Source: Raillietiella orientalis (lineage: Eukaryota). From it: a DNA stretch of 64,000 bases. The notes beneath the pieces are model-generated. The model saw only the letters and a program-made list of their open reading frames with translations, did no database searches and was not told the origin of the DNA. Location of the stretch: assembly GCA_036172245.1 (NCBI GenBank), contig JAYWIR010000073.1:310001-374000 (forward strand), given 5' to 3'. This document shows, one piece after another, positions 18,960-61,534 of the stretch; positions within the stretch are counted from its first letter, which is position 1, and each line of letters opens with the position of its first letter. The position numbers were made by a program, and so were the translations under genes.

Positions 18960-20760
18960 AAGAGCAACAACTGAGCATCGGCAGTTTGAAAAGTGTTTGT
19001 GACGGGAAGAATTCTTCAGTTCGGGCGATTTCTTCAAGTCTTCTGAGCTTCAGAGCACATTTCTACTCTCGGAACGTACAATCCAATGGCCAATCTTGAA
19101 GCTTGATTCTGTTCGTCGTTGGCATCGTTGCTCCCATGACGTCATTCTGTAACCGAAAAATCCGGTTCCTGCTTGCATTCATACTTGCGATACCTTTCAG
19201 CAGTGTGCAGCACCTCGTAAGCAGGGGATGAAAGTGTATTGGGAAACAATTCTGTCCGGGTGGACAGACGGCGTGTTTCCCTGTCGAAACCAGTCATTCC
19301 ACGAGCTGCTGCAATTCCTCCCGTTTCTGCACGGTCGGTTTCTTCCACTTCCGGGCTCTTGAATTTCCTTCTTTGCATCTCGCATGCTCCATCACGGTTC
19401 TTTCCTCTGTCACCCACGTTGCCCTTCCTCGACCAACGGATACTTCGCATTTGATAGTTCCAAGACCACGGTTATAGACTTCATTCGAGGTAGAATGGTG
19501 AGGCTCGCGAGAACTTGACAGCCGCTCTTCCTGAAGAGTCTGCCACGAATTCTAGGGCACCACACCGAGCTGCAAGGTGGGAGGAGATGTGCTTGCGGGT
19601 CTCCGCACTGAGTCTTCCTCCTCTTGCTTCAACGAGAGGAAAGGTAAGCCCGAATCGGTACCACCGCTGCCACCTTCACACGACCGGAAGCGTCGGCGTC
19701 AGCGGCTGTTCTTATTGCCCACAGGGTGATCACTGCAAGATCAAAACTTGCTGGCGGTATATCATCTTCCATTCCATGGGTCTGGAAGGAAAAGCATCCC
19801 CGCTTGACGTCGGCGTCGTGCCGCGAAGGAACCTGCACCGACGAGTCGTCCTCATTCTTCGCGGCCAAATGCAGCGCCGTCAATCCCAGGTGGCACACGG
19901 CATTCACGACGCCGTGGAACCTCAGGAGATCAACCATTTCGCTGGTGGGGAGCTCATCGTCCTCAACCGGCGCAACGCCACTCGTGCTCGCCGGGCTGAA
20001 GTCGCTACGGTCGCTCCGAAACAAATCCTCCAAGCAGTCCTCTCTGTAGTTCAAGGCAACGTGGAGTGAGGTCCTTCCGTTGTTGTCTCGCGCGTTGATA
20101 TCGCTCCCACGTCCCAGAAGTCTCAGAACACCCTCGTTCCTGTTCCTCGCGGCGATGTGGAGGGCTGTGATGCCCTTGGAAGTCCTGGAGTTGACGCAGG
20201 TCCCGTAACTCAGGAGCACCTCCGCGGTTCCCGAGTTCTCGTTCCACGACGAAAAGTGGAGCGGCGTGTAGTTCTTTATGAGCGACACGGGATCCATGCA
20301 GACTTCAGGAGCTCCTCGGTCACCGAGCTGAACCCGGACGCGGCCGCCACGTGGAGCGGCGTCGCTCCGTTCTTGTTTGCGGCGTCCACGCACGCTCCGC
20401 TGTCCAGCAGCGCCCTGACGACCTCCCTCGCGTTCCCCTGCGCCGCCAGGTGGAGCGGGGTGTTCCCGTCCCCGTTTCGGGCAGACACGTTGGTGTCTCC
20501 GCTGAGGAATATCATTACAGTCTCCACTTCCCCCATGTGGGCCACCTTGTGGAGCAGGCTGTCGGAAGGTCTTCTGGCGCTGCTGGGCTTGGCGAGGAGG
20601 AACTACGCCACTTCCGGGTAGTCCTTTCCGAGGGAGGCACTGACCATTTTGTTGAAATCGCTCTCGTCCTCCAAGCTCAACGGGTAGAGGTGGTCGATTT
20701 TTGCCAACGTTCCCCACCCGACCGCTTTCACCAATTCCTTGTAGGGGCTCTTACCTTTCA
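18960..20760 (-). pseudogene. Ankyrin-repeat (probably ANK-PRANC) pseudogene
   Basis: Clear ANK repeats (GNTPLHLAA, GATPLHVAA, YTPLHFSS, GITALHIAA, GLTALHLAA) are split across frames. In-frame TAG at 20605-20603 and a frameshift near 20300. The N-terminus YKELVKAV...YPEVA*FLL parallels LEELNVAI...YEVAELLL of the 804-aa gene. The C-terminal region is heavily degraded. Confidence 0.85.
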
Positions 20761-21749: not shown

Positions 21750-24000
21750 AAAAAATAAAAATAAAAATATGGTGGGCAGGGGACAGGGGCCTTTGGTACG
21801 GCCGTTCCTTCCTCTCAGAACCGGCGATGGATGCCGGCGATCTCTCTTCTCACGCCCTCTGGTAGGTGGGCCCACTCGGCAGCCGACGACATGCTCGCGC
21901 TGGCTATTCCGGTTGGCTGACGAAGGATGGCCAGCTTCTCCAACTCTCGGTGGGCCTTGTCGATGGCGCGAGTGCAACACACGGTTGCAACGACAGCACC
22001 TAAAGACAGGCCGCCTGGCGTGAAGAAGCGGCGCATCAAGTCTCTCGCGGTGTCCCCCTGGTGCAGGAGAGCTGAGGCCAGCCTCCGCCAAAGTCCTAGG
22101 AGGGCACCGCAGTCCAGGAGCAGGTGCGGGAGCGTTTCCACTTCCCCGCACCGCTTACAGCTTGGGGAGACAACTCCCCCGACCTCCGGGACTGTGGCAA
22201 AGGCTGGCAACCCGCGCTGCTGCGTCCGGCGGACGGGGCTGCGCACCATCTTGCTGCCCTGGAGCCACGCTCGCAGCGAGGGCAGATCATCCTCCTCGTG
22301 GGGATTGCAGTGGGGTGTCTCCTGGTCTATCCAAAGTACCGTTTAGTGATTCGCGTTCGCTCTGTCGCCGAGGCCGTCGCTGAAGGATGTTGCTGTAACT
22401 TCGGAAGCGCTCCTCAGAAGGTTTACTGAGGACGGTCGTTCGTGTCTTGAGCCTAAGGGCAGTGGAGTCCAGAAAGTTCTTCGCTAGATGCGCTCGGCGT
22501 CATTCCTGGGGATCTGGTGACAGGCAGATCTCTCCAGCCGCGGAGACTGCCTGCAGGCGCGGAATCATCGTGGCTGTAAACACTCAGCAGCTTTCATCTG
22601 AGACTTTCTGTCAGGTTCCCTTCAGAGACACCATTGGGAAAGGAGAACAGGGACCGTCGCAGGGTACGGTGAACGATAGTACCTCCCCCACCTGCCTGTG
22701 GACTGTGTTGCCTTCCGATTCTTATGGGACGTTTTGGGACGATCCTACGGACCCCGGTCGTCAACCCCAAGGACCTCGTGAAACTCCTCTTCTAATGGGA
22801 TGCCCTGCCGCCAGCTGCAGCCGCAACAGCTCTTCGATCCCCTTCCTGGATTGTGGTGTTCTGGAGCGATGCTGAAGCGGAACTGAACAAAGGGGACGCC
22901 GTCCATAAAAAAAAAGATAAAAAGGGGGAGGAAAAATATTCCTTGGGGAGAGGAGGGCAGAGAAAAGATCACTTTACACCGGAAGATGTCCTCTTTATCC
23001 CGTCCAGGATGCTAACAAGTATCGTTCTTCCATTGCCCAGGCGCGTCGGCGATTACCGCACTTCAGGAACGACCGCATCTTGAAGCGATTTTTAAAAAGA
23101 TCCGCCCCCAGTGGATGGAGTCCTTGTCCCATCTTCCCGCGTCCCAGGCTGCCACGATTCCTCAGATCCAGCAGGGAACAGCTAAGGATGCGAGCCACAG
23201 GAACTTGGGACAGTCCCCTGTCCCAAGTTCCTGTGGTTTTCAGTTTCAGTTCCAAGAAGGGTGGCTTTCAAAGTAGATGGGAAAATCTTTCCAAGTATGA
23301 CGCAAGAAATTCCTAAGAGCTGCCTCTGCAGAGCAGCGTGGCTGACTCGTGCAAGGAAAGATCTGTGAGTTTCTCCTTGCAGGAACAGATCCATCCCGTG
23401 GCAGTCGGAGAGTGGGGAACATGGCGTCACTTGTAGGGGATGGGAAGAGAACCGGTCGTCGAGTCCGCAATGATAGGATTACGAGAGACGTTGCAATGTT
23501 GGCCTCTATCTCTCCTCTCCGACGGTCCGTCTCGCAGGCACGGCGCTCTTTGCAATTCTCCGAGGCACGTGATTTGGGCTTCCTTTTCTTCTGGTCTCGC
23601 TAATCTCAGGAGAAGGAGGATGCTTTGCAACAGGAGGTTATTGACGCACTGGCCAGAGTCCTTCTCATCTTTTCCATCACGGCTGCTATCCTAACCATGA
23701 GGACGGACCCTAACATTACTCCTAACAGTATCCTAGTCTGAGCATCTTCAAAGCACCGGAAGTGGTTCTGTGGGAATACAGGAGTTCACGGAAAGAGAGC
23801 TAATTTTTCCAGTTCTCTGATCGGAGGCCAATGAAGAGCTGGACAGAAGCGATCAGACGCATAAGAAGCGCGCTGGGCGAGTCCTCGAGTGAGCACAGCT
23901 TCGTTTAGAAAGAGATGGATGGGTGGACCCTCGGAACTTCCTCTTTTGGGATGCCAGGTCCGCTTTGCGTCTCTCTGTTCAGTGACCAACTGATTTCCTT
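21750..24000 (-). mobile_element. Decayed L1/Tx1-like LINE ORF2 (APE, RT, zinc knuckle remnants)
   Basis: SCKRCGEVETLPHLLLDC zinc knuckle (ORF 21815-22249). HPIRRGVSRG (~22790) resembles the RT RGVRQG motif. RTWHPKRG...IHLFL...SDRFCP (~23830-23960) resembles the APE TW...RIDYFL...SDHCP motif. T-rich tract after the stop. Confidence 0.75.
23195..23236. repeat. Perfect 19-bp inverted repeat, 4-nt spacer
   Basis: ccacaggaacttgggacag-tccc-ctgtcccaagttcctgtgg. Confidence 0.95.
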
Positions 24001-27679: not shown

Positions 27680-27900
27680 GTCCGAGAGTATCCTCCCCCC
27701 CTCGAGGCGAAGTTTCCAAGGGAGGTCGCTTCATCCTCTTCCCCCGCCTTTCTCCTCCGCAGCCGGCTCGTCAGGAACGTCGCGAACTCGGCATCACCCT
27801 GAAGACTCCCCCCCTCCTCCAACACCACCGACGATCTGCCGCGGCGCTGCCTCGCCATGTGGACTGCGGCTGACCGCTCCGAGTCGTGTGACCGGGTGAA
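27680..27900 (+). repeat. Interspersed repeat (LINE body fragment) homologous to ~44770-45000 (-)
   Basis: Shared blocks: gaagtttccaagg, ctccgcagccg, cgtcgcgaact.ggcatcac and tcgccatgtggactgc (RRELGIT peptide in both). Confidence 0.75.
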
Positions 27901-29269: not shown

Positions 29270-30480
29270 AGAAGGAATCAGAGTGGAAGGTTGCGTTGCG
29301 GGGCCCGCGTCGGAGCCCCTGTGGCTGCTGCGGTCTCCGAGCTCGGCACCACCAAGCGCACCCGTTTCGAATACTTCGAACGGAATCGCCGTGGATTCGT
29401 GCGGCTTCCGCAAGATGACGATGGTTGTCCCGCATGCATTCGGGTGCGGCGCTGGTAGCGGTTGATACCGGATGCCCCCGATGAGGGCAGGGACACTGAA
29501 AGTCCACTTCCGGGACCTTACAGGACTCAGGGAGCTGGAGTTCTTCCCTTCCGGTTATGCAAAGGAGAACGGACCCCTTAGCGTGGGGGGACCTTTCCGG
29601 TTCATTCAGATGGAAGAGGTGCGTCACCACCTCTCCAGAGAGTGCAGAGAGTGAACCGATCTCTTCGGAGGAGCAGCGCCCTCCTGAATTGTGGAAACGT
29701 CCCTTCGGGGTGCTCTTCAGAGGAGGAGTAAACAGGAGCGGGTTCCCTCCGGAGAAGAAATGCCAGGAGCGGGCATCTTCGGGGATCCCTGCTGAGAGAA
29801 TAAGGAAGGAGATTTTCCTTTGGGGTTGCCTTCGGAGACAAGCAGGGTGGAGAGGAACGGGGCGCCCTCATCTTGAAGAATTCCACGCATCCTTGAGTGG
29901 CGTAGAACAGCGTTAAAGGTCTGCGTGAGCCGCCGCCAGAAGTGCGACGGTTCTTGAGGCACTCAGCGAACCCCCAAAAATAAAAACCCGAAAGAAAAAA
30001 CAAGAAAAAAAAGCTTTAAGCAAGAAAAACAGAGAAGACAGAAAAGAACCCCGGAAGGATCTCCATCATCTCTTCTGTCAGATTTCACTACCTTACATAT
30101 GCTATATTCAGGGTGATTTTCTTCTGAAGACGCATCCGAGGAGGAAACGGTTCCTCGACCAAGGCGTATCGAGAAATCTCCTGGATGACCCGCACACACG
30201 AGCGTGCATTCGTTTTTGCATATGGCTCTTCTCTTTGACCCGCAGAGGTCCTCACGGTGGAGACTAGTCAACACCTCGGTAAGCACTGGTTGGCGTGGAA
30301 CCATCGAAATAGGGTCCGAAAGGCCGATGCAATTCCGGGCAGAACCTCGCCCTGCCAGGTTTCGGCGACTTGTTCCAGTTGACTTCAGGCCAGCAGCATT
30401 CTTCCTCGGACTCTTGGATGGTGTTTCCTCTTTCCTTCCTGTTTGGATCGAAATTTCTTGATCCAGTCACCATTTGCTCG
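29270..30480 (-). mobile_element. LINE 3' remnant plus junction repeat copy
   Basis: WPEVNWNK and Cys-containing remnants at 30.1-30.4 kb, then a T-rich tract on the minus strand at ~30000. 29437-29525 (cattcgggtgcggcgctggtagcgg...) closely matches the reverse complement of ~58670-58757. Confidence 0.65.
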
Positions 30481-31137: not shown

Positions 31138-33117
31138 ATGATGGAAAGGAACAGAAATCTGAGAAGTGTAGCAGAAGAAATTGGAAATATCCCGGAATTT
31201 TATTGGCTGAACTCACGGAGACTGCCCAGAGAAGACACAGAGAGGCCCTCTTTTGGAACTGGTGGCACATTCTTCAGCACGCTGCCCAGAGAACACAGAG
31301 AGAGGCCCTCTTTTGGAACTGGTGGCACATTCTTCAGCACGCTGCCCAGAGAACACACAGAGAGGCCCTCTTTTGGAACTGGTGGCACATTCTTCAACAT
31401 GCATCTTCCGTCGCTTCAGGAACATCTCCGTTCCTTCAATTCCATACCCTTAGGAACGTGGTTTCACGATGAGCTAGACGATATGTTTCCCATTCCAAGT
31501 GCGGCTTTACCTCCTCGAAGGACTCTGAACGGATCTAGCAATGCACAGATCCGGGACGCTGCTGCTCAGAAGAAGGTTCCGTCAAAACGCGCAGGGAGTT
31601 CCGTCAAAACGCACCTGCAGACTGCGCACAGTCTGCAGGTGGTTGTGCCTCATGAGGTTTCTCTGCAAGGAAATGGGTTGGCGAGGGCCCTCCTCGGCAT
31701 CGAAGATTGTGATTCCCTCGCAGCAACGTTGTACCGCGTGACACCGCTGCATCTGGCAGTGTTGAATGATAACAAACCTCTTGCCGAAGTCCTCTTGGAG
31801 CACAACGCTGACGTCAACGCTGCTATGAGCACCGGGAAAACTGCCCTCCACCTCGCTGCGTCCATCGAAAGCATCAGTATGGCTCAGCTGCTCCTAAGCC
31901 ACAACGCCTATGCCGATGCACAGGATGAGAATGGAGAGAACTGCCTTCACTATTCGTTGAGGAATCTGAATCAGGAGATGATGAATCTTTTTTTGCAGCA
32001 CATTGACAACATCGACGCTCAAAACTACTGTGGATTGACCGCTCTCCACTTGGCTTCAATGAGTCCCAGCAGAGCAACGGTGAAGAGCATCCTGGATCGC
32101 AAAGCTAATCTTAATTTGAAAAACAAAGAAGGAACAACCGTGCTCCACATTGCTGTGCAGAACTCAGACAAAAATCTGACGACCTTGCTTCTTAACTACA
32201 AAGCCGACCCCAACGTACAAGATGTGAAAGGAGAAACCGCGCTCCACTCTGCTGTTAAGAACAAGGATGAGGAGCTAGTGGATCTCCTCCTGGATTACAG
32301 CGCTGATGTGAACGTCGAGGATGAGCATGGCAACACTGCGCTACACATGGTTCCCCCCCGTGCACTTGATATCCTCATGAATCTCCTGGAAAATGGTGGC
32401 GACTTCAACCGCACGAACAAGGAAGGGAGAACGCCGCTGGAGAATGCCATCGAAGCTTGTAAGGTCTCATCTAAGGAGATCAGTCTGCACTACTTCTACT
32501 GCCACAACAATTCCACCGAAATTGGATTCGGGGCCTGTGCTCAGCTCTACACGAAATTTGTAGCAAAGTGGAAATCCCTGGGGCTCCATGTGAGCGAGGA
32601 GAACTTACGTGCCCTCAGGACATGTGAATCTTTGGGCTTGCAAGATCTGCTATGTGAATGTGAGAGACAAATTGAGAAAATGAGGAGGAGCAAAGCTGTT
32701 TATAAGATTCCGTATTACGATGTTTTGATGAAAAGAAGGAACCAGTTGGCTGAGTGCATCTGCAATAGAGTCCTCGAGAAGCTCTTCGAAATGGAAGACC
32801 ACAAGTTTGAGTACGACGAAATGGCCGAGATTCTGGAGGACCAGTTTGAACGAGGGAAGAAGAGGGGGGCGTTGCTAGAAGAATTCAATGAGGCTTTTGG
32901 GTCTCCTCACGCAAGCTGTTCCATTTTGCCAGGCAACTGTAGGGATCAGATATCTGATTATTTAACTGATAGGCAGCTAGCAAAGTTTGTGGATGCTTTC
33001 AGATCCGAGTGCCCTCAGTCCCGACCTCCCTACAGCTATGAAAAACGTTTTTTTAGAAAATCCGTATCGTTTGGATGTTACTGTTCTGATCAGTGGAATA
33101 CCGTCAAACTTTGGTGA
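31138..33117 (+). CDS. Intronless ankyrin-repeat protein with C-terminal PRANC/F-box-like domain (~659 aa)
   Basis: Uninterrupted ORF with about 8 ANK repeats (TPLHLAV, GKTALHLAA, GLTALHLAS, GETALHSAV...). The C-terminus KFVAKWKSLGLHVSEENL...CERQIEKM...YYDVL...LPGNCRDQISDYLTDRQL fits the PRANC pattern. First ATG at 31138. Confidence 0.9.
   Translation: MMERNRNLRSVAEEIGNIPEFYWLNSRRLPREDTERPSFGTGGTFFSTLPREHRERPSFGTGGTFFSTLPREHTERPSFGTGGTFFNMHLPSLQEHLRSFNSIPLGTWFHDELDDMFPIPSAALPPRRTLNGSSNAQIRDAAAQKKVPSKRAGSSVKTHLQTAHSLQVVVPHEVSLQGNGLARALLGIEDCDSLAATLYRVTPLHLAVLNDNKPLAEVLLEHNADVNAAMSTGKTALHLAASIESISMAQLLLSHNAYADAQDENGENCLHYSLRNLNQEMMNLFLQHIDNIDAQNYCGLTALHLASMSPSRATVKSILDRKANLNLKNKEGTTVLHIAVQNSDKNLTTLLLNYKADPNVQDVKGETALHSAVKNKDEELVDLLLDYSADVNVEDEHGNTALHMVPPRALDILMNLLENGGDFNRTNKEGRTPLENAIEACKVSSKEISLHYFYCHNNSTEIGFGACAQLYTKFVAKWKSLGLHVSEENLRALRTCESLGLQDLLCECERQIEKMRRSKAVYKIPYYDVLMKRRNQLAECICNRVLEKLFEMEDHKFEYDEMAEILEDQFERGKKRGALLEEFNEAFGSPHASCSILPGNCRDQISDYLTDRQLAKFVDAFRSECPQSRPPYSYEKRFFRKSVSFGCYCSDQWNTVKLW
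31222..31396 (+). repeat. In-frame 60-bp tandem repeat, ~2.9 copies
   Basis: Near-identical units encoding LPRE(D/H)(T/R)ERPSFGTGGTFFST. Confidence 0.97.
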
Positions 33118-33191
33118 ACGAATTCTCCCTCCTGGAGGCTGTGAGTTTCCTTTTTTTTTTTTTTACTTTCGACAAACTTGGTAGAAGGCAC

Positions 33192-33255
33192 CATTTGCTC
33201 AAGGAACGTTTCTTACTTTCCTTGAGCAAATGACCTTTCCGCAAGAAACGTTCCT
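33192..33255. repeat. Interlocked double inverted repeat (15-bp and 13-bp stems)
   Basis: catttgctcaaggaa 33192-33206 pairs with 33218-33232; aggaacgtttctt 33202-33214 pairs with 33243-33255. Confidence 0.95.
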
Positions 33256-34439
33256 AGTGGTGGCCCTGTTCCTCCCGAAGTCATTCCTCAGCTTTGCATA
33301 CGCGTTCCATCCACGCTGCACCAAAGGCAAGCCCGAAGACTCTGCAAGCAGGGAGGCTCGCTAGCTGAGGCGGGTCCGGCAGCGTCCCAACCGCCTACTT
33401 TTCACCCGGCAGAAGACCGGACGCGCTTGGGCGCAGGGAAGAAACTAGACATGGACGAAGATGGACGTGCCGGCGGAAGCGGATTCGTGGACCCGGCGTC
33501 CATACCCAGTGGGCGCCAGTAGCCCGTTCCTCGTTCCGCGCTACCCTCACTGTGGGCAACCGTGCCTCGACTCCACGTAGAAGTGGACGTTGATCACGGC
33601 GTACGTGCCTGCGCCGATTTGGGGCCTGGTGCGCGCACCCGGTCGCGCCCTACACGTTACGCTGGCGGAGAGCACAGCGCAGCCGCCGCAACGTGGAGCG
33701 CCCTTCGTGCAGGACCTGAGCGGCGCCAGCGGCGCCGCAGGCACTTTGGCTGCGGTGGGCGGCGGCTGAGGGATGGCGGCCCGCAGCGGCGGCTTCCACT
33801 CGTCGGCCAGCGTTTACGACTACAGCAGCGCGGTGGGCGGCTCTGCTGTTCGTCGCAGCGCCCTACGCTCCCGGATGACCTCCGCCAGGAGCAGGCCAGC
33901 TTCTTCCGAACGCTGCTCCTCTGCTGCTTGCCTCCGTTGGAGGAAGAAAAGTCTTCCGACGAGTTCCCATGGAACAAATACACGTAGCGTGAAGAAAAGT
34001 TCAATTACGGTGGATTCTTTTTTGTTTTGCGATGCTTGGATGAAAAGGGAATGGGTCGGCTGCCGATTCAAAATGTCGAAGCAGCATCTCCACAATCCTT
34101 TTGTTATTCATTTATATTTGGGATCAACTGAAAGCAAAACACATCTTCCGGCATGGGGTCGCTCGAAGTGGTCACATTCGAACGAGAAAAATGATGGTTC
34201 GTCAGCTTCGCAAAGTTGACATGAGAATTCGCATCGGAAAATTGTCAGCAGGATTGCGATGGGATGACAAAGGATGTCTCCCGTATCTCAGTGGGAAATG
34301 CAGTGAATTCTTGTGAAATGTCTTCTGAGGCTTGCCAACTTCTGGTGGGCATCAGCCAGCCAGTCAGGACATGGCTATGGTTGCCATATAGGGGTAAGAA
34401 AGAACCCTTTCTAGAGTCGACTTTGGCAGCAGCACAGCT

Positions 34440-35760
34440 AAGCTTGCAAACCTGCGCAACCATGACCAACATGGAGGACAGTCTTCCTAATTCCCGGGTT
34501 TCCAGTGACCGCTCGTGGGTCGCCCTGCTTGCTTCGCGTGGGTCGACTCCGGAGGCGGCGGAGTAGCCCGCCAGCGGGTTGACGTGCGACCCAGGCACCT
34601 TGGAAGGGCAGCTGCCGCGCTCCTTGCACGTGCGTCTGCCAAAGGAGGTCACCGTGATGGCAGCCTCCTGCATGAGAGCAAGATGACCTCACCTGGAAGA
34701 AGTGAAAGAGGAGATCGCCGGCATCCAGCTCCGGGTTTGAAATGAAGGAACGGTGGACACCGGTGACCCTTGTTTCCTGCCACCCCCTTTTTTATTTTTT
34801 CCTCATTTCCCAGTTTCTTTCGCTTCAGACATTCCCCTTTTTTTTTGCACATTTTTCCCGGCGTGCGCAGAGTAAGGTCTTGCCCCATCCTCCCGGATTT
34901 CCGCATGTTTTTTTTTTTGAGTTGTGCTCCTACCCCTTCTCCTATCCCGTTCCTGATTTTTCGATATTTTGGCCTTCCCTCAGCTTCCGTTTCCGATTGG
35001 GAACTGCATCTTCCCGTCTGATTCATTTTCGATTCAAGAAACGGAAAACTTCGCAGCTAACGACACCGAGGAATGAGAGCATCATTAAGAAGCATAAGTC
35101 GAAGCAGAGTGTGCACCGACACGCAGGTCGGGATCCCCAAAATTATTGAACGGAACGAAGGGGACAGTAAACAGATGAATGAATAAAGGGAGGGTGGAGA
35201 CGGGGGTCACGGGTGATGGCCTCTCCTTTCTAGAACCGACGCTGGATGCCGGCGACCTCTCCCGGGAGAAGCAGCGACGGGGTCATCGAATCGCTCTCAC
35301 ACGTGCCGACGAACCGCGGCGTCTTCCGCCCATTGCAAGAACCCCAGCTCTCCTGCATCCTGAGGACATCCGCTGGCCCGGCTGCGTCGATTCTTCCCGC
35401 GGGAACGCCTCACGCCTGCCTCAGCGATCGCGACCTTGTGTTGCGTTCGCGGTATCCTCACTGCCCTGGAGGCAACGATCCCTGTGCATCCACCCCCGCA
35501 CACCTATATTATTAATTTGTTCACCCTGCTCTCCTCTCAGTGCGGCGGAGAATTCCTCCTCTTTGCCGGGAGCATCGGCGACTCCCTCCCAGCGGAACTT
35601 CTTTTTGGTTCCTCCTTTCCTTTGAGAGACACCAGGAGCCGCGCTCCCTGCTTGACGTGGTCTCATCTTTTTGTCAGAATAAGCGCCCCGGCTCACTCGG
35701 GTTGCCCAACCCTCTAAAGGAAGTTCGAAGAGGACTTCGCCGCCATCCAGGAGGAGTCTC
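34440..35760 (+). mobile_element. LINE 3' remnant with downstream junction-repeat fragment
   Basis: Frame ends ...EVTVMAASCMRAR*PHLEEVKEEIAGIQLRV* at ~34740, then a T-rich tract. ~35590-35640 resembles ~58388-58435. Confidence 0.55.
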
Positions 35761-38080
35761 CTCGATGGCACCCCTATGTGCTCAAAGTACCTGACTGAGG
35801 CGATCTCCGGGATGATCCAGAGAGACTGTCCCTCCCTCGTCGCACGCAGGAGGGGACGACCACGCTCTTGCTCCTGTTGACATCCACGCTCACCCGCCTG
35901 AGAATCGGCCTGAAGAAGTGGTGGAGCCCAGCTGCCTGAGTGGATGCAGGAAACAGGAGAGGCAGGACGTCCGCGCGAGCGTTCCCGGTCGACAAGCCCG
36001 GGCGGGAGCGGGGAAGGCTGGCCAGCCGCAGTCTGAGCGCCTTCGACAACAACTGGAGGGAGATACTGAAGGGCAGGGGGCTTGAGGTGTCGCCCTGCGT
36101 GATGGCATCTGGGCGCAGGAAGTGGGGGAACGTGGCATCAGCCGAAATGAACGCTGGCGCGTGCGTAGCACCAGCAGGAGCGCAGGGAAGCGAGCACGTG
36201 TGCTGACAGGTCGAGACCTTCCAAGAGATGCGCGAGATGGTTGACGCAGTCGACCGTCAAGGCGCTCAGTGTTGCTCCTGCTATCCAGAGCAGCGGGATG
36301 CTGTATCCGGAGACATATCCGTCCGAAAAAGAGGTTTGCATCCATGCGTCGACCTGGAAGAGCAGATGTCGCCTCCAGTGACTCGAGGAATTCATGAACA
36401 TAAATTTTATAATGATAAAAAATTACATTCCAACATCATTATGTTACATATATATATGTGTGAACATACATTATTTATTTATTGTATATTTATATTAAAT
36501 TTATACCTGATTTTAAGTATAACATTTATAATAAATTCGCGAGAGTAAGTAAACATATGCTTTGATTTATACAAAACACCAAATATTTCATACAATAATA
36601 ATTTATTAATACTCTATAATATATTACATCTTAATAAATATGTTAAATATTGATGGAGGATGTAAGTGTAATGTTCTTGAAAATATTTTCTTGTTAATGA
36701 GATGAGTTTCTTTTTAGTATATTGTAAAAGGACGACTCCTCGATCCTCCCCAGCCGCGCGACCCACGGCTTCCACAACAACCTGATGTGCGAGTTCACCA
36801 GAGTGATCGGACGCCAGCTGTTGAAAAGGCGGAGGGGGCGCACCTTCTCCGAGCGGGAGGAGGCAGGCACACCGCCTGCCTCCCCCCCTTTCCCCAGCGG
36901 CAAGAAGCTCCGCATTAGGGGGGGCCAGCAAGCAACCGAAGCAGCTGAGAAGGCAGACCTCCTCGCCTGGTGCACGACCGCTGCAGAGGTGAGTGGACAG
37001 ACTCTCTCGGCGCTTCTTACCATTGCCAAGGAGAAGTCTCCCTGCGGCTTCCGTCGCGTAAGCTACACGGTGACCAAGCTCTCGGGCGGCTGTCGACGGG
37101 GAATTCCAGTGGGTAAGTTTCACGGCCTGGAATGGTGCCGAAGGAAACCGCCTGCGGGAAGTCCTTGGTGCAACTGACAGCGCCATCAGAACACCGGAAC
37201 GTGAAACCTAGCGTCGAGACGCGCGCATCACTTCCCATCCCATCCCGGAACGGGGAAACCAAGCAGATGGCACTTTATTGACCGGTAGCTTGCGGCTGGC
37301 GACGTCGAGGAGCACCCTCCGGAGGAACCTGCCGATCCTCCTCCTAGCGGCGGTCATCCGGGAGGGGAGGGTGCTGTGACGAATAGCAGAACCACCGCCC
37401 GCGCTGTTGCGGCCGTCGACGCTGGCGGACGGGTCGGAGCTGTTGCGGGCCGCCGTCCCGCTACTGCTGCTCGCGACAGCCAAAACGCCGCAGTCGAATC
37501 CTCCTCCATTGCCGGCTGTTCTGTGTCCGTCGCCAGGGGAACGTCTTTGGGGCGACAGGGATCGCACACCATGCCCCAATCTGCTCAGGAGCAGCCACCG
37601 TTACTCGTGCCCACTCGTGGAACCCATCATATGGAGTGCGGCTGATAGAGCTCCTTTGATTAATTTCTTATGGAGAAACGTCTGCAAAATGCTTGAGCAA
37701 TTCATCAACGGTCCTTCTTTTGATTAGATGACGAATGGCCATAGCAAACGTCATACTTTAACTTGTGAGCACGTTCCATCACAGTAGGAGTCAATTTTCA
37801 TTGGGCCTATTATTCCCCACTTGAGAGAAACGGAGCAGCTCACGTGAAATCATGGAATTGGTTTTCCGTGTGCCCAGGGAGCTTCTGTTCCCCAATGCGT
37901 GCTGGCAAGCGTGGAAACGCCTTTCATGCGGATGGCGCGGAGGTGCTCGTGGTTGCTCGAGTGTGCAGCACCAGTCGAATGGGCCTTTAAAATGAAAAAT
38001 CCCAGCGAAGGTTGCGTAAGGTTCGTTTGTAGTTGCAGCCAGCGGAACTTAACGTTCCATCCCAAGCCGACGTTAAAAGG

Positions 38081-40093
38081 ATGAGTTGCTCATCGGAAAA
38101 CCTCGAAATCCCTTCTCTCACGAGTTACTTGAAGACGTTTCCGCACTCGACGCTCCAGAAAATTTATTCTCACCCAACCTCGTGTGTTGTAGTGTTTCGG
38201 TACGAAAATGAATGAAATGTTGGCGCTGCACATTCGTCGTTGCTTCTTTGGAGTGTCGAGCTCGCAGTGATGTGCTTTATTTTCAGGGAGTTGTCCAGCC
38301 TTGCGCACGTGTACATTTATAGGTTGCTGTGCTTTGAGCAGTGTGTTTCTCAGGCGCTGATCGAGTCGTGGGCCGCCCACACATACATCCAGTCAGTCTT
38401 GCAATTCTGTGAATTTTTTTATGATGACCTCATTCAGGGAACACCACGAAGTGGTGAAAGAATTATTCGATCTCTCGATATGGCAGCATGTAATGATGCC
38501 TGGTGGACTACCCGGATTGGTTCTTAATCATACGTTCCGCCATAATTTCAAGGTTTTTCTGTTTGGAGGGTAAACTTGACTTACTAATTTGGCTTTTCAA
38601 ACTTTGCATCTGCAGTCATCCTAAATGAATGTAATTTGAATCGTAAACCTGCCAGATTCTGTGTGTATCAAGATACACACAGAATCTGCCTCTCTTGCTC
38701 TCCCTGTAAGGGGTGTTTTTCCGTACGTGCAATCGGATGAATACGAGATAACCAGTGTACTTTTCACAGGCAAGAAGCATGGAATCTTCAAGTACCTTTC
38801 ACAGTGGATCCCCATGCAAAAAGTGTGGAGTTCCTGAATAATTATGCACAAGAACGCTGGGAGTGCATTTTGCATTACATGGTGGGATCAATGCTTCAAG
38901 AAGGTGTATCTGCAGATGCAGTTGCCATTCTCTTGCATGCAGGATTAATGACAAGGTAAGAGTCAACCTCAGTTGATTGACCAGGAACTTTCAAAATCTT
39001 GCACCCTCTTCTTGGATTGATCAAAGTGCATGTTCTGTAAAAGACCATGAAAAAGGCAGGTTGCATTCCCTTTAGCTGTGAAGATGACAATCCACCCAAG
39101 ATCACAGAGAAAGGGTTTAAGTTTGTCATGATGGACATAACTTCTCAATTGTGGTACTTCATTCTGCAGTACTTGGACACCAAAAGCGAGGAGGTTTTCA
39201 TAGAGTGCCTTATTTTCCTGCTTCAGCTTAGTCTGTGTACACTGGGTAAAGTATGTTGTACATAATTTCAACTTAGTTTTCTATATTCTTACCATGTGGT
39301 AGGACTATAGTACAGAAGGGCTGTCAGAAGTGTTACAATCCTTTCTGCAACATTTGAGGGAATTTGGATTAGTCTATCAACGTAAAGTGAGGTCTGCATC
39401 TGTTGAAGTAAATTTTCAAACTTCATTGATAGAGACGATGTGGGAGATTTTACCCTACACAGCTGGTCATCAACCTGACATCCTCCAAGCGAATAATAGA
39501 GCTGCATAACAAGAAAAGTGGTCAGCTGATTGTAGAAACCAACTACCGAGTGTATGCTTACAATCCTAGCCTTTTACAAGTTGCCTTGTTGAGTCTGTTT
39601 TGTGAACTACTTTACAAGTAAGTAATTTTGTGACCCATGCATAACTCTTAAGGGAAAAAAAAAAAAAGATTCCCCAACATGACAGTTGCTCTGCTTACCC
39701 GAGACTCTGTTCAAAATGCATTCAGTAATGGCATTACAGCTGCCCAGATTTTGAAATTTTTACAAATCCATGCCCATCCAGTATGCTTGAAATCAGATTG
39801 TGTCATCCCAACAACTATTAGTGACCAGATCCAACTGTGGCAGTTGGAAAGAGAGAGGTAAGCAAGTGCAAGACTGTATGTAGATTCTTAACCACTCTTT
39901 TAGAATTGTGTGGCAGGAGGGTGTCCTGTATAATCAGTTCTTGTCACAAGATGACTTTGAATTGCTTTGTGGTTACAGTAGAGATGCTGGTTTGCTCATC
40001 TGGAGTAACAGTCAGAAACGAACCATGGTTGTAACGAAAAATGGTCACGACACTGTTAGAAAGTTCTGGAAAAAGCATTCCAAGCCTATCTAA
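38081..40093 (+). CDS. GTF2H4: General transcription factor IIH subunit 4 (p52/Tfb2), 9 exons
   Basis: Exons 38081-38199, 38287-38391, 38438-38569, 38770-38955, 39076-39250, 39303-39386, 39433-39617, 39669-39857 and 39904-40093 join in frame with GT-AG introns. Hallmark peptides: [78 protein letters not shown]. Confidence 0.96.
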
Positions 40094-40348: not shown

Positions 40349-41627
40349 CTAGCATTTGCTAGCTGCTGTTTCTGGAAAATACTTATGATAGTTCATAGAT
40401 TCTAGATAGATGGAACATAGATGCTGCAAAAAACCGTCCGCAGCGAACGAAGACATCCCACTTCTGGGATAAAAGAGGTGTGTACATGTGACTGTCAAGG
40501 TTCTTAGAGAGAAAAAGAACGAGTACGCATTTGACAAGATTGCTGATTCATGTCTTCTCTGTCACAACACTTTCAAACAGTGTCCAATAAAGCTGACTCG
40601 ATTCATTTTCGGCTTCGAACGTTGTGTTTTTACTATATGTTTTCTAGCATCCAAAGGTTTCAAACTGCACAGATTCAGAAATCTCTTCACCATGGTTGTT
40701 TTCCACTGCATCAGCTGACTTTTGCGGACCTTCCCAGACCACTGCAAATTCCTCCTGATGGTTTGACTCTGATAGTCACAAAACATGCTAACACATTCTA
40801 CCAGTTGCTGTAAGAAGGTCTCAGGAATCTCATGCTTTTGAAACACTGGACAATGCAATTTGTGGATAGTTGCACCATTCTTCCAAGGGGAACATTCTTT
40901 TACTTGTAATAATTTCAACACGGAGTGCCGACATTGCAACAGTTTATCAGGGGGCTGAAAGTGTTCACACACAACATAAACTTCCGAATTTCCTGGTTTA
41001 CTGCTTGCTGGTTTAAACACTTGCACTTTGTGGAAAGAGCAAACCAACAAATACATTAAGCATATTGTTTGACACTCGAATGTAGTAAATATTTTCAGAA
41101 CAAAACATCCTCCCACTTTAAGTGAATGTATTGCCAAAAGGATTTTGCAGAATTGTAGCTCAGATGTCATTGATTCTTGACTCCCAGGATTTGAACTGCA
41201 GTCAATGCTCCCATCTGCAGTAACCTAGGAAAGCCACACACAATACGTAACAGGTGATTCAAGCAAAGTATACCAAGTTTATCTCGCCTATTTCGGAGAG
41301 CTGTCCCATGAGGTTGGACGGAATTGTAATGTCACCTGTTTCATCTGCTCCAAACAACCGGCTATGGCATGTTTTCTCCATAAACCAGCTATCTGATGCA
41401 ATGCAACTCTCAGTACCTCCTTGGCAGAAGGGATTCAAGCTGGAAGCTCCCCAGATCCACTTGTAGGGAAAAAAATTGCAAAATTATTTTGGAAGAAGCA
41501 ATTCTGCCTTTACATCCAGTTCTAAACAGATATCTGCAAAGTTTGTTGTGTGTGTGTGCATTGTGATGAGCTTCAAGCTATTTGAATTCTGGATACTTGC
41601 CAGGAGAGCGTGTTTTGAAAAATTAAC
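40349..41627 (-). CDS. CMTR2: Cap2 mRNA 2'-O-methyltransferase-like (CMTR2/FTSJD1); both ends uncertain, possibly a pseudogene
   Basis: Exon 41459-41274 (WIWGASSLNPF...FGADETGDI) and an exon from 41224 (VTADGSIDC...GGCFVLKIFTTFE...FKPASSKPGNSEVYVVC) match the FtsJ-type CMTR2 core. Introns are 54 and 49 bp. Confidence 0.85.
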
Positions 41628-59119: not shown

Positions 59120-61534
59120 TTATGAATCTTCGGAGCTGGACTTATGCAGATCGATGGATTCCAAAGCATTCACGAAATGCTTCAAATCTTCTTCATCCAG
59201 GAAGCTCGATATCTTGTTGGTACAGACGCGCGGCAAGATGGGGCAGTCCCTGAAACAGTGATCGAAAACGGGGAAGAACGCTTCGAGCAGCTCTCTCCTC
59301 TCCGTTCCTTTTACAAACTGAGCTTCTACCAGAGCGCCGTATATTGGAAATCTGTCTGTGAGGGTCAAGTGCTCCTCTCGGAAGAACCGGATGATGCTCG
59401 CGTTCCCGGTGCAGAACGCGAGCTCGTTGCCGTGCTTAACCAATATGTCCGAGAAGGAGACGTTGTCGCCGATCTTCGTCGACTTCATCCTCTGAAGTTC
59501 TTTTTCGCACTCAGACGTGTAGCTCCGCAGGAGACAGACCTCGTTGAGGATCTCAAAAGCCTCCATGTTCCTCCTGCTCACGTAGATGCCGCAGAAACGC
59601 ATTCTCACGATGAAGCGTGTGAGGATCGTGATGATGCACTCTAGAGCGGACAGCGCTTTCTCGCGTCCCACAGCCTGCGCCTGCGAATAGTGCTCCCAGA
59701 GCCTGTTGGCCAAGGCGAGGATAGTCTCTCCGGTGTTGTTGACGGCGTTGAATTCGGCGCCCTCCTGCAGCAGGATCATGACCATTTCCGGGTTCATCTT
59801 CCAGACCGCGTTGTAGAGGGCAGTCGATCCGACGTTGTCCTTCGCGTCGATTTCGGCGCCGGAATCCAGGAGAATCCGAAGCAGAGCCGACACGCTGGGC
59901 ATGGAAGACATTACGCCCGCGTTGGCGAGGATATGGAGCGGGGTCGACCCGTTGATGTTCCTGCTGTTGACGTCGGCCTTGTAATCCAGCAGGAGCTTCA
60001 CCGCCTCGTGGTTGTACATCTGGGTGGCCATGTGGAGCGCGGTCATGTTTCTGTAATTCGTGGCATTGACGTCGATCCCGTGGTCCAGGAAGAGCTTCGC
60101 CATCTTGAGGTTCCTGAAGTTGATGGCGAAGTGGAGGGCGTTTCCGTCCCCGAACCCCTCGTTCACGTCGGCGTGGAACTCCAGCAGGTGTTTCGTTATT
60201 TCAAAGTTCTTGGACTGGACGGCGATGCGGAACGACGTCATCCCGTTTGGATTCCGGATTTGGACGTCAGCGCCGTGCTCCAGGAGCAGCCGGACCAGGT
60301 TCGGGTTCCTCTGCCTGACCGCGATGTGGAGCGCGGTGAGCCCGTCGCCCTCGATCGCATTCACGTCGGCCTTGTGCTCCAGCAGGACGCTGGCCACCAC
60401 CAGGTTGCCGGTTTCGCTGGCGATGTGGAGCGCGGTCGTCCCGCACCTTCCCCTGCGGCTCTCTGTGGCACCGCCGCGGCGCATGAGGAGAGCCCCCAGG
60501 TGGTAATCTTCGTACTTCTTGATGAGGCGGAGCAGGATCCTCTCGCTCTTGTACCCGTTCTTGATATCGGCCTTGAACTCCGACAGGTGTTTCTCGAGGT
60601 CGTAACTTTCGCTGGGGTCGGCGCTGTGGGTCTCCGCGCTGTGCTTCGAGAGGAGGTCCACAAACATCTCGTATTCCGGCTTGTCGACCATCGGGACGGC
60701 AGGCCTGCCGATCGGGCACCTGGCGTTCACGTCGGCGCCGTGCTCCAGCAGATAGAGCGCGACATCCTTGTTCGAGTTGGTGGCCGCGCAGTGGAGCGCC
60801 GTCGTCCCGTAATTGCACGTGGCGTCGACCTCGGCCCCGTTCTCCAGCAGCAGCCTCGAGATCTGCTCGTTCCTCTTCAGGGCGGCCAGGTGGAGGGAGG
60901 TCGCTCCGCTCGCGGCCCTGGAGCCGACGGGAGCACCGTAGCTAAGCAGCAGCCCCATCGTCCTTGCGCTCCCCTTTAGGGTGGCAAAGTGGAGCGGGGT
61001 GTACCCCGGCCGCTTCTCCGACGTGCAGCTGAAGTCGGGGCTCGCCCCGTACTTCAGCAGGAGTTCCACGAGCAGGGAGGATCTCTTCTGAGAGGAGATG
61101 TGGATCGGCGCCATCCCGTTGTCGTTTACGCAGTTTGCCGACGCTCCGGCCTCCAAAAGCATCTTGGCAATCTTCCGTTCCGAATTCCCCACGGCCAGGT
61201 GCAGGGGGCTCGCCAACCTCTCGTTCAGGACGTCCACGCGGGCGCCCCTCTTCAAGAGCATCTCCGTCATTGAGGCGTTCCCGGAACGAACAGCAAAGTG
61301 GAGCGGCGTGCCGGAAAACCCGGGGGTGTCGCTGTTGACCGCACACCCGTATTCCAGAAGCAACTCGGCAACCTCGTAGCTGTGGTGCTGGAGAGCATCG
61401 CAGAGCAGCGTGTAGCCTTCGCACCACGATTCCGAGTAGCGGAGACCAACGGAGTGGATGATTTCCCTTACTTTCCCGACGATTCCCTCGCGTATGGCTA
61501 CGTTTAATTCTTCCAGTAGCTCCAGGTTTTCCAT
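59120..61534 (-). CDS. Intronless ankyrin-repeat protein with C-terminal PRANC/F-box-like domain (804 aa)
   Basis: Uninterrupted ORF with roughly 15 recognisable ANK repeats plus a degenerate central block. The C-terminus reads RFIVRMRFCGIYVSRRN...ECEKELQRMKSTKI...FSDIL...FPIYG...KG..RRELL...LPRVCTNKISSFLDEEDL. Confidence 0.93.
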   Translation of the reverse strand: MENLELLEELNVAIREGIVGKVREIIHSVGLRYSESWCEGYTLLCDALQHHSYEVAELLLEYGCAVNSDTPGFSGTPLHFAVRSGNASMTEMLLKRGARVDVLNERLASPLHLAVGNSERKIAKMLLEAGASANCVNDNGMAPIHISSQKRSSLLVELLLKYGASPDFSCTSEKRPGYTPLHFATLKGSARTMGLLLSYGAPVGSRAASGATSLHLAALKRNEQISRLLLENGAEVDATCNYGTTALHCAATNSNKDVALYLLEHGADVNARCPIGRPAVPMVDKPEYEMFVDLLSKHSAETHSADPSESYDLEKHLSEFKADIKNGYKSERILLRLIKKYEDYHLGALLMRRGGATESRRGRCGTTALHIASETGNLVVASVLLEHKADVNAIEGDGLTALHIAVRQRNPNLVRLLLEHGADVQIRNPNGMTSFRIAVQSKNFEITKHLLEFHADVNEGFGDGNALHFAINFRNLKMAKLFLDHGIDVNATNYRNMTALHMATQMYNHEAVKLLLDYKADVNSRNINGSTPLHILANAGVMSSMPSVSALLRILLDSGAEIDAKDNVGSTALYNAVWKMNPEMVMILLQEGAEFNAVNNTGETILALANRLWEHYSQAQAVGREKALSALECIITILTRFIVRMRFCGIYVSRRNMEAFEILNEVCLLRSYTSECEKELQRMKSTKIGDNVSFSDILVKHGNELAFCTGNASIIRFFREEHLTLTDRFPIYGALVEAQFVKGTERRELLEAFFPVFDHCFRDCPILPRVCTNKISSFLDEEDLKHFVNALESIDLHKSSSEDS

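Follow-up and report, generated by a model that had tools for sequence, protein, structure and literature searches.

Proteins that carry ankyrin repeats and a PRANC domain (ANK-PRANC) are known from Wolbachia with its phage WO and from other Rickettsiales, as well as from poxviruses and several lineages of insects. In poxviruses and intracellular bacteria they are tools for turning the host ubiquitin ligase on host proteins. In the experiments described in PMC4148323, SKP1 and CUL1 were pulled down by Orientia Ank proteins that have a PRANC/F-box-like tail, and the myxoma ANK/PRANC protein MNF is presented in PMC2842262 as a component of the cellular SCF complex. Insect ANK-PRANC genes comprise the CLANKs of Nasonia and other Chalcidoidea together with families in Pseudomyrmex, Bemisia, Ceratina as well as Microplitis; the account given in Pers and Lynch 2018 (PMC6161386) considers Wolbachia-like donors to be their source. 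The closest described relative of the genes reported here is gwv_1092 of Wolbachia phage WO (KX522565), annotated as 'ankyrin repeat with PRANC domain protein', of which near-copies occur in two Rickettsiales genomes (L002 and G237).

Here we analyse a 64-kb stretch of DNA, hereafter the window, that encodes two highly divergent proteins of this kind. We favour, with moderate confidence, the interpretation that the first of them (copy 1) is a protein-coding gene of a non-vertebrate animal genome, of the laterally shared ANK-PRANC-like kind, serving as an SCF adaptor and descending from an old Wolbachia/phage-WO-like source.

Gene content and genomic setting

A preliminary description of this DNA had proposed an intact, single-exon open reading frame of about 2 kb, and 659 codons are indeed open at exactly the position of copy 1. 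The stop-to-stop frame starts at 31090, and under the base composition of the window a frame of 659 codons would remain open by chance with a probability of ~1.5e-13. Among the open frames of the window, only that of copy 2 is longer than that of copy 1. Immediately past the TGA of copy 1 come a GTGAGT and a T-run. The encoded protein has a disordered N-terminus, followed by ankyrin repeats and a helical C-terminal tail, and its translation shows neither a signal peptide nor a hydrophobic N-terminal stretch, in line with the earlier statement that no signal peptide is evident. The features of copy 1 are as follows:

31138..33117, plus strand: ANK-PRANC-like gene, copy 1; uninterrupted coding sequence (CDS) from ATG to TGA, 659 codons plus the TGA stop
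31138..31731, plus strand: N-terminal region of ~198 residues, without domain match, containing a 20-residue repeat
31222..31396, plus strand: in-frame tandem repeat, 60 nt x 2.9 copies, 97% matching, encoding the 20-residue peptide repeat
31732..32472, plus strand: ankyrin-repeat region, about residues 199-445, made up of about seven helix pairs and one capping helix
32533..33012, plus strand: PRANC-like helical tail, about residues 466-625 (~160 residues), supported by tblastn, blastp, hhalign, AF2 and BFVD comparisons
32926..32997, plus strand: F-box-like end of the tail, its last two helices, with the motif LP..C...I...YL....L...V.A recognised in alignments

The suggestion that copy 1 belongs to an amplified family is borne out to the extent of two intact genes and one remnant within the 64 kb:

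59120..61534, minus strand: ANK-PRANC-like gene, copy 2; CDS open throughout, 804 codons followed by a stop; Pfam marks 14 ankyrin stretches
59147..59623, minus strand: PRANC-like tail of copy 2, with the FPIY motif and the LP motif kept
19632..20750, minus strand: ankyrin-coding remnant near 20 kb, frameshifted, in two frames (19632-20750 and 20279-20602)

Copies 1 and 2 share 29-31% identity in an alignment that runs through both the repeats and the tail, and the fact that both have been kept open at ~30% identity points to purifying selection. The remnant is probably a decayed paralogue; tblastn with both window tails found no PRANC-like tail in it.

Copy 1 had also been placed about 5 kb from a nine-exon housekeeping gene, which our analysis confirmed:

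38081..40093, plus strand: GTF2H4 (TFIIH p52/Tfb2), nine colinear exon pieces separated by short introns

Nine ORF pieces on the plus strand at 38033..40090 map colinearly to positions 1-358 of the Pfam Tfb2 profile and then to Tfb2_C, and the ATG at 38081 lies 4.96 kb past the copy 1 stop codon. Identity to human p52 in the last two exons is 39/63 and 33/56 positions (~60%); a word-indexed protein search with one GTF2H4 exon returned no match. Having a complete nine-exon GTF2H4 ~5 kb downstream indicates that the setting is an animal genome, and, judged by identity to human p52, a non-vertebrate one. Scanning 299 further ORFs of the window revealed no bacterial or viral gene, and across the 64 kb only the ANK genes, GTF2H4 and a fragment of an FtsJ-type gene are recognisable. 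The FtsJ fragment finds its best sequence matches in animal CMTR2 (36-48% identity, across many bilaterians) and is AT-rich and CpG-poor, like GTF2H4. Separately, in the ESM Atlas its nearest feature clusters are giant-virus methyltransferases (score 0.94), which we record as a lead only. The window contains no Rfam families and no tRNAs (ARAGORN), and telomere-type repeats were not found in it.

Base composition changes sharply at ~38 and 42 kb: the block between, which holds GTF2H4, has a GC content of 0.41 and a CpG observed/expected ratio of 0.51, as against a GC content of 0.53-0.60 outside it and CpG ratios of 0.92 for the whole window and 0.96 for 12-30 kb. The window has no N and no bacterial-style gene packing. 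Dispersed repeats flanking the ANK genes recur elsewhere in the window, and diverged pairs of them join 33745-33921 with 37307-37484 and 27690-27886 with 44786-45000.

Family membership of the C-terminal tails

The architecture had been read from the letters as ankyrin repeats plus a PRANC/F-box tail. Its ankyrin part is secure, with copy 1 matching the Pfam families Ank_2 (E 1.3e-37) and Ank (E 7.7e-36, five scored stretches), and profile and hhalign comparisons uphold a PRANC-like tail; the F-box part calls for qualification, the canonical models (PF00646 / PF12937) giving no match to either tail at E<=10. A search with PF09372, put forward earlier as a check, gave 13.4 bits (E 0.1) for the copy 1 tail and 14.2 bits (E 0.058) for that of copy 2, both below the Pfam gathering cut-off of 25.8 bits that we took as the threshold for PRANC membership, and PRANC was not listed at E<=1 when the whole of copy 1 was compared with Pfam. 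Because these scores lie under the cut-off, we call the tails PRANC-like, meaning divergent homologues that are not Pfam-annotatable. Two other family readings were rejected: that of a canonical F-box protein, for want of any F-box profile match, even if the protein may function in a similar manner, and that of an ASB protein (ankyrin repeats plus SOCS box), as no SOCS-box family appeared in Pfam at E<=1 or E<=10.

Several further comparisons reveal that the tails are homologous to PRANC domains. A profile of the window tails aligned by hhalign with 11 PRANC-positive tails at 99.8% and E 4.8e-29 over 159 columns; these partners had been found with the window profile, and their PRANC scores, 27-41 bits each on PF09372, are independent of it. 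When both tails were compared by tblastn with 50,697 phage records, three matched, all of them ANK/PRANC genes of Wolbachia phage WO. Against gwv_1092 the copy 1 tail scored E 2e-11 (E 4e-19 by blastp) and the copy 2 tail E 1e-25 at 36.9% identity. The gwv_1092 tail itself reaches 33.2 bits on PF09372, thus passing the cut-off that the window proteins do not, and matches F-box models only at E 0.013-0.019.

An exhaustive search with a profile of the two window tails recovered 725 proteins at E<=1e-3, of which 158 remained at E<=1e-10; none of the 1.84 billion representatives reached E<=1e-30, and the match is C-terminal in most of the 150 proteins listed. Among the best 70 matches, 69 were scanned, and PF09372 was detected at E<=0.01 in 57/69 and at the gathering score in 39/69. 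An alignment of 24 tails has six columns conserved in 90% or more of the sequences; copy 2 retains all six of them, copy 1 four. The copy 1 tail has lost the near-invariant FP dipeptide, present in >90% of the aligned tails, which makes its predicted docking on SKP1 less certain than that of copy 2. Other resources had less to offer: a word-indexed protein search with copy 1 residues 440-659, a tblastn comparison of the copy 2 tail with plasmids, and PHROGs for either tail all returned no match or family; in NCBIfam the sole similarity was of a generic ankyrin kind, to Legionella Ank effector models and far under their cut-offs, and the best ESM Atlas score for the tail was 0.86. Taken together, profile comparisons and structural models make a strong case that the tails are homologous to the PRANC family.

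Predicted structure

The AF2 model of copy 1 residues 185-659 has a mean pLDDT of 82 and a pTM of 0.74, and the ~198-residue N-terminal region lies outside both predicted folds. About seven ankyrin helix pairs are modelled at a pLDDT of ~97, and within the tail the F-box-like end is the most confidently folded segment (pLDDT 91-95). At this end the LP, I, L and L positions are identical in both copies, despite an overall identity of ~30%. The tail follows the ankyrin repeats at the C-terminus, at about residues 466-625 of 659 in copy 1, and the order in copy 2 is the same.

Among the best 50 matches of Foldseek against predicted viral structures (BFVD), 32 carry a name and 31 of these are poxvirus proteins, mostly labelled ankyrin or PRANC, with probabilities up to 1.00 and TM-scores of 0.4-0.6, at weak E-values (best 2.3e-3, none <=1e-3). 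Against the PDB, Foldseek gave nothing at E<=1e-3, and VIA-align over 48,161 chains reached a best Z of 5.4 through helical hairpins only, so that no solved fold was assignable.

Relatives, phylogeny and composition

The highest identity of a window tail to any relative is ~38%. Organism names were available for 12 of 30 relatives looked up, and all 12 are insects, from 10 species. A phylogeny of the C-terminal region had been suggested earlier, and its outcome is mixed: the nearest sequences are of the Wolbachia/phage WO type, but the trees of the tails, which include a quick mixture-model tree and no poxvirus sequences, are star-like and unrooted, and no starred branch contains either window copy. 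Such trees point to no donor, direction of transfer or number of acquisitions. The group that takes in copy 1 (SH-aLRT 84, unstarred) also contains a Copidosoma protein, and the weak pairing (81-87) of copy 2 with a protein of Microplitis is on a branch that is likewise unstarred. In the free trees the window copies stay apart; a tree constrained to join them lies 16.5 log-likelihood units above the free quick tree (AU p 0.84), although long-branch attraction may have helped this monophyly. The centre of the star is occupied by WO-type bacterial tails on very short branches, whereas all eukaryotic copies are on long ones, a pattern that fits a bacterial or phage hub.

PF09372 was detected in 6 of the 301 genomes sampled from the order to which the Wolbachia genome (G002) belongs, once above the cut-off, and the window profile in 10 of 401. 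The GC content at third codon positions (GC3) is 0.555 in copy 1 and 0.82 in copy 2, far from the 0.21 of the Wolbachia phage gene gwv_1092, which argues against recent transfer or contamination. The gap between the copies themselves, 0.56 against 0.82, is unexplained. As far as sequence comparison goes, a horizontal origin of the ANK-PRANC-like genes is plausible.

Function, history and competing explanations

By analogy with the SCF-adaptor mechanism shown for poxvirus and Orientia ANK-PRANC proteins, the ankyrin stack would bind a target protein and the tail would dock on the SKP1 subunit of the SCF ubiquitin ligase (SKP1-CUL1-RBX1) of the host itself, the ANK-PRANC-like protein acting as an exchangeable substrate receptor. 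The two genes probably steer the cell's own ubiquitin ligase to chosen targets in this way. Their history may have begun with one ancestral gene, acquired long ago and most likely from a Wolbachia/phage-WO-like source, which would then have been duplicated within the host genome, the copies diverging to ~30% identity and both staying open under purifying selection.

The function is where a competing reading comes closest. The genes may be real and the adaptor role lost, with the tail decayed to a structural cap and the proteins working simply as scaffolds or regulators of the ankyrin type. Both tails do fall under the Pfam threshold and match no F-box model, the FP dipeptide is gone from copy 1, and PMC6161386, in its treatment of Nasonia, has CLANKs with cryptic tails acting in embryonic patterning; a lost adaptor role has been proposed for some Nasonia CLANKs whose PRANC now escapes detection. 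We nevertheless hold this reading to be possible but doubtful, given the LP, I, L and L positions that stay identical in copies otherwise ~30% identical and the confident fold of the very segment that carries them. As to origin, the family could instead be native to the animal lineage, or the transfer reversed, with phage WO, Rickettsiales and poxviruses having taken the module from arthropod-like hosts. That history would accommodate the rarity of the module in bacteria, the host-like rather than Wolbachia-like composition of the window genes and the rootless tree without a supported donor; the discussion of phage WO in PMC5062602 places its PRANC domain closer to invertebrate than to bacterial sequences and considers both directions of transfer. 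It appears unlikely all the same, as the named eukaryotic relatives come from scattered insect lineages, a patchiness that has been interpreted in PMC6161386 as repeated transfer; the short-branched WO-type tails at the centre of the star also speak against it, as do two intronless CDSs beside a GTF2H4 with eight introns.

Two further readings concern the DNA around the genes. We judge it very unlikely that a large integrated DNA virus (of a poxvirus-like or giant-virus-like kind), and not a bacterium or phage, left these genes behind: poxvirus ANK/PRANC models are the tail's structural neighbours, and the giant-virus clusters near the FtsJ fragment offer a lead in the same direction, but the nearest sequences to both tails are Wolbachia/phage WO-type proteins, the 299 other ORFs include no other viral gene family, and the FtsJ fragment is best matched by animal CMTR2 and shares its composition with GTF2H4. 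An assembly chimera or contaminant, in which the GC-rich ANK DNA and the AT-rich GTF2H4 block stem from different organisms or loci, would explain the abrupt shifts at the block's edges. Diverged dispersed repeats are, however, common to both sides of these supposed boundaries, and neither the absence of N and of bacterial-style gene packing nor the short list of recognisable genes suits a junction, which leaves a chimera highly improbable. In invertebrate genomes with gene-body methylation, CpG depletion limited to the housekeeping gene block is the usual pattern, which the depleted block around GTF2H4 would fit. An old acquisition from a Wolbachia/phage-WO-like source, maintained as a pair of SCF adaptors, remains our preferred explanation.

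Comparison with known ANK-PRANC systems

Like gwv_1092 of phage WO, the window proteins have ankyrin repeats followed by the same ~160-residue helical tail, ending in LP..C..KI..YL...DL in the phage protein, whose tail is 29% identical to that of copy 1 and 37-38% to that of copy 2; the match covers Pfam's 97 PRANC positions plus ~60 residues upstream. Unlike the window genes, gwv_1092 is bacterial or phage-borne, AT-rich in the GC3 terms given above and 946 residues long, and the repeat-bearing N-terminal extension of ~198 residues sets copy 1 apart from it.

With the insect ANK-PRANC genes the pair shares a nuclear, animal location, ankyrin repeats with a PRANC or cryptic PRANC tail, multiple copies and fast divergence. 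Almost all Nasonia CLANK sequences described in PMC6161386 have introns, whereas both window CDSs are uninterrupted; identity to insect proteins is at most ~32% for copy 1 and ~38% for copy 2, and the tail trees gave no supported grouping of the window copies with any family of insects. The poxvirus ANK/PRANC (ANK/F-box) host-range proteins and the Ank effectors of Orientia tsutsugamushi follow the same two-part plan, and poxvirus models match the predicted fold of the window tail, but the sequence similarity of either group is far below that of the WO type. They also act on the ligase of a foreign host, whereas the ligase that the window gene would use belongs to the genome in which it resides. 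Modular substrate receptors of cullin-RING ligases also include the cellular F-box and ASB proteins, and the ASB docking box also follows ankyrin repeats; in cellular F-box proteins, however, the box is usually N-terminal and full length, and the window proteins match neither an F-box nor a SOCS box.

Animal-acquired ANK-PRANC genes, such as those of Nasonia, became wired into development, and the very divergent pair in the window would be a further case of a pathogen-type adaptor domesticated in an animal genome. Since both copies score under threshold, Pfam-based screens are expected to undercount the family. Were the host to lie outside the insects, the known reach of this exchange network would be widened, and the pair would be the first ANK-PRANC-like family in a non-insect animal, either an old acquisition, fully ameliorated, duplicated independently and retained by selection next to housekeeping genes, or a remaining branch of a eukaryotic stock that supplied the module to phage WO and poxviruses, an outcome we rate as rather unlikely. 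For now, the pair is a divergent addition to a phenomenon already known, that of laterally shared ANK-PRANC adaptors, and does not open a new one.

Two intact ankyrin genes and a probable remnant

Copy 1, an ANK-PRANC-like gene, opens with an ATG at 31138 and runs uninterrupted for 659 codons to a TGA at 33115-33117, exactly as the single-exon ORF of the preliminary description. Its stop-to-stop frame begins at 31090, and the chance of a frame this long staying open at the base composition of the window is about 1.5e-13. Across the 64 kb, only the frame of its paralogue, copy 2, is longer. The features recovered around it are as follows.

31138..33117, forward strand: copy 1
31222-31396, forward strand: tandem repeat in the N-terminus of copy 1, 60-nt unit x 2.9, 97% identity
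59120..61534, reverse strand: copy 2, intact, 804 codons, 14 Pfam ankyrin stretches, same plan as copy 1
19632-20750 and 20279-20602, reverse strand: ankyrin remnant in two frames, the repeats continuing across the frame change
38033-40090, forward strand: GTF2H4 (TFIIH p52/Tfb2), complete, nine colinear ORF pieces, 5 kb downstream of copy 1
40565-41477, reverse strand: FtsJ/CMTR2-like fragment in two frames, its match limited to about residues 170-450 of animal CMTR2

Copies 1 and 2 align through both repeats and tail (the PRANC-like C-terminal helical region) at 29-31% identity. The ankyrin frames near 20 kb share 28-48% identity with them, and no PRANC-like tail was detected there; most simply, this locus is a third family member that has decayed, or else its two frames are exons separated by a very short intron. 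The proposal of a multi-copy family is borne out by two intact genes and one probable remnant within 64 kb. Opposite the GC-rich copy 2 lie long spurious frames, such as 59645-60979 (444 aa). A segment upstream of copy 1 (29413-29748, forward) also resembles one downstream of copy 2 (58466-58781, reverse) over 343 nt at 72% identity; together with further diverged pairs (33745-33921 with 37307-37484; 21757-21853 with 34702-34799), it probably represents pieces of dispersed repeats.

Against Pfam, the whole of copy 1 matched ankyrin families only (Ank_2, E 1.3e-37; Ank, E 7.7e-36; five scored stretches), and its first ~198 residues matched none. This N-terminal part includes the tandem repeat at 31222-31396, which lies in frame and yields a 20-residue peptide repeat, a very recent expansion; as previously noted, the translation lacks the N-terminal hydrophobic stretch of a signal peptide. 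An AlphaFold2 model of residues 185-659 (26 aligned sequences; mean pLDDT 82, pTM 0.74) comprises about seven ankyrin helix pairs and a cap at residues ~203-445 (pLDDT ~97), a low-confidence loop, a helical tail at residues ~466-624 (pLDDT 72-90), and ~30 disordered final residues. Folded in isolation (24 aligned sequences), the tail forms ten helices with a mean pLDDT of 76, the last two reaching 91-95. Beyond the stop, a GTGAGT at ~25 nt followed by a T-run of ~17 and an AG (33118-33200, forward) resembles a short 3' UTR intron, and no AATAAA was seen by eye in 33118-33800.

Relationship of the tails to PRANC

The tail had been described as a PRANC/F-box domain, with HMMER and PF09372 as the proposed check. 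On that profile both copies are sub-threshold (copy 1, 13.4 bits, E 0.1; copy 2, 14.2 bits, E 0.058; cut-off 25.8 bits), and no Pfam F-box family matched the window tails even at E<=10. The PRANC part of the description nevertheless stands on phage WO matches and profile comparisons. Searching 50,697 phage records by tblastn, the tails matched three, all genes of Wolbachia phage WO annotated as ankyrin or 'ankyrin repeat with PRANC domain' proteins (copy 1: E 2e-11, 29% identity over 155 residues; copy 2: E 1e-25, 36.9% over 159). The tail of one WO ankyrin and PRANC protein, gwv_1092 (KX522565), scores 33.2 bits on PF09372 and matches copy 1 by blastp at E 4e-19.

A profile built from the two tails and searched against 1.84 billion representative proteins recovered 725 at E<=1e-3, of which 158 reached E<=1e-10 and none E<=1e-30; in most of the 150 listed, the matching segment is C-terminal. 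PF09372 was scanned on 69 of the best 70 (P0036 was left out for its length): it was found at E<=0.01 in 57 and reached the gathering score in 39, and most of the 69 also carry many ankyrin repeats. Aligned by hhalign with 11 short PRANC-passing matches, the window-tail profile gave 99.8%, E 4.8e-29, over 159 columns. By such indirect sequence comparison, the tails are clearly homologous to PRANC. The conserved region exceeds the 97 positions of the Pfam model, starting ~60 residues earlier at a '...KMK.ANL.VSE.N' helix, and ends in a truncated F-box-like pattern in which copies 1 and 2 share the L-P, I, L and L residues. Across 24 aligned tails, copy 2 keeps all six columns conserved at 90% or more and copy 1 four of six; its loss of the F-P dipeptide partly accounts for its low Pfam score.

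Fold comparison against predicted viral structures gave no Foldseek row at E<=1e-3 (best 2.3e-3); among the best 50 rows, 32 were named and 31 of these were poxvirus proteins, most of them bearing an ankyrin or PRANC label, with 150-185 aligned columns, probabilities up to 1.00 and TM 0.4-0.6. Among solved structures, Foldseek returned nothing from the PDB at E<=1e-3, and the best VIA-align Z was 5.4, to helical hairpins.

Genomic setting and base composition

The nearby nine-exon housekeeping gene of the preliminary description is GTF2H4, whose pieces fall colinearly on Tfb2 (1-26, 21-59, 57-105, 105-170, 171-230, 231-263, 262-321, 319-358) and then Tfb2_C. Its last two exons are identical to human p52 at 39/63 and 33/56 positions; vertebrate p52 proteins are expected to be far closer, so the host is an animal and most likely not a vertebrate. 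The FtsJ/CMTR2-like fragment lies tail to tail with it, ending ~470 nt from its end, and its frame stops ~12 codons past the last match; this could be a gene that was truncated or broken, or a short form particular to the lineage. In the ESM Atlas, the clusters closest to it are giant-virus FtsJ proteins, which serves only as a lead. Nothing else was recognised in the 299 other ORFs scanned, which comprised 150 in 35.4-58 kb with a minimum length of 70 aa and 149 in 1-30.7 kb with a minimum of 95 aa. Three forward frames (2524-3177, 5943-6557, 6469-7116) share a C.C.S...C pattern with a further C 5-7 residues on, recalling small cysteine-rich extracellular modules, and a 329-codon reverse frame at 48334-49320 has a signal-peptide-like start (an internal Met, then a hydrophobic run); neither the three nor the latter matched Pfam at E<=0.1.

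Copy 1 has a GC of 0.49 and a GC3 of 0.555, and copy 2 0.59 and 0.82, a GC3 gap (0.82 vs 0.56) that exists despite a separation of only 26 kb; the GC3 of GTF2H4 exons ranges from 0.35 to 0.48. Both copies are far in GC3 from WO gwv_1092 (GC 0.34, GC3 0.21), and thus bear no compositional trace of recent Wolbachia origin. The 38-42 kb island holding GTF2H4 and the FtsJ fragment has sharp edges, a GC of ~0.41 and a CpG o/e of 0.51, against a GC of 0.51-0.63 in the surrounding 12-37 kb and a CpG o/e of 0.96 for 12-30 kb and 0.92 for the whole window. Gene-body (germline) methylation of a housekeeping block could account for it; an assembly join is less likely. Diverged dispersed repeats common to both sides of the boundaries mildly favour one genome.

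Relatives and history of the family

Among 30 relatives looked up, 12 had organism names, all insects (Chrysoperla, Pseudomyrmex, Lasius x2, Microplitis, Copidosoma, Leptopilina x2, Bemisia, Macrosteles, Eretmocerus and Ceutorhynchus), and one a generic name. In the bacterial order holding a Wolbachia genome, PF09372 was found in 6 of 301 sampled genomes, one above cut-off, and the window-only profile matched 10 of 401; within this sample, the ANK-PRANC module is rare in bacteria. The best bacterial match, a 948-residue frame in a 1.3-Mb genome, scored 126 bits, slightly above the top score of the global protein search (120.1 bits).

The proposed C-terminal phylogeny did set phage, bacterial and insect tails side by side, but gave the window copies no supported placement. 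We built three trees, all without poxvirus sequences: a FastTree of 135 rows (132 of 151 matched proteins, retained when the match spanned 130 or more profile positions, alongside WO and both window tails), a quick mixture-model tree whose 51 rows were hand-picked to span the clades, and the latter with 11 bacterial tails added. All were star-like, with neither copy inside a branch marked as supported. By path and identity, the nearest rows were WO-type bacterial tails (copy 2, 38%; copy 1, at best 32%), which occupy the star hub on very short branches, whereas every animal copy has a long branch. Left free, the trees keep copies 1 and 2 apart, yet the best tree pairing them gains 16.5 log-likelihood units and is not rejected (AU p 0.84), a result to which long-branch attraction could contribute. 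Most simply, the family would go back to a single old acquisition from a Wolbachia- or phage-WO-like source, the gene having then duplicated within this genome. The data also allow ANK-PRANC genes to be native to the animal or to have moved in reverse, a direction the phage WO authors likewise consider (PMC5062602).

Comparison with known ANK-PRANC proteins

Both copies have stayed open after diverging to ~30% identity, the third copy having probably decayed, and the LP...I...L...L end is conserved between otherwise ~30% identical proteins. Orientia Ank proteins with a PRANC-type tail are reported to pull down SKP1 and CUL1, whereas those without it do not (PMC4148323), and a myxoma ANK/PRANC protein is described as part of a native SCF complex (PMC2842262). 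By analogy, the window proteins would be substrate receptors that deliver proteins bound by their ankyrin repeats to the SCF ligase of the host itself, a role to which we give slightly better than even chances for copy 2 and lower ones for copy 1. ANK-PRANC genes are already known from insect genomes, where several independent transfers have been proposed, and those of Nasonia are reported to act in embryonic patterning (PMC6161386). Among 34 papers that mention the PRANC domain, those on animal genomes concern, judged by title and opening of the abstract, insects only (Nasonia, Halyomorpha, Lasioglossum), and supplementary files may bear on this. Relative to these, copies 1 and 2 are a very divergent new ANK-PRANC-like pair, which would be more notable if the host is not an insect.
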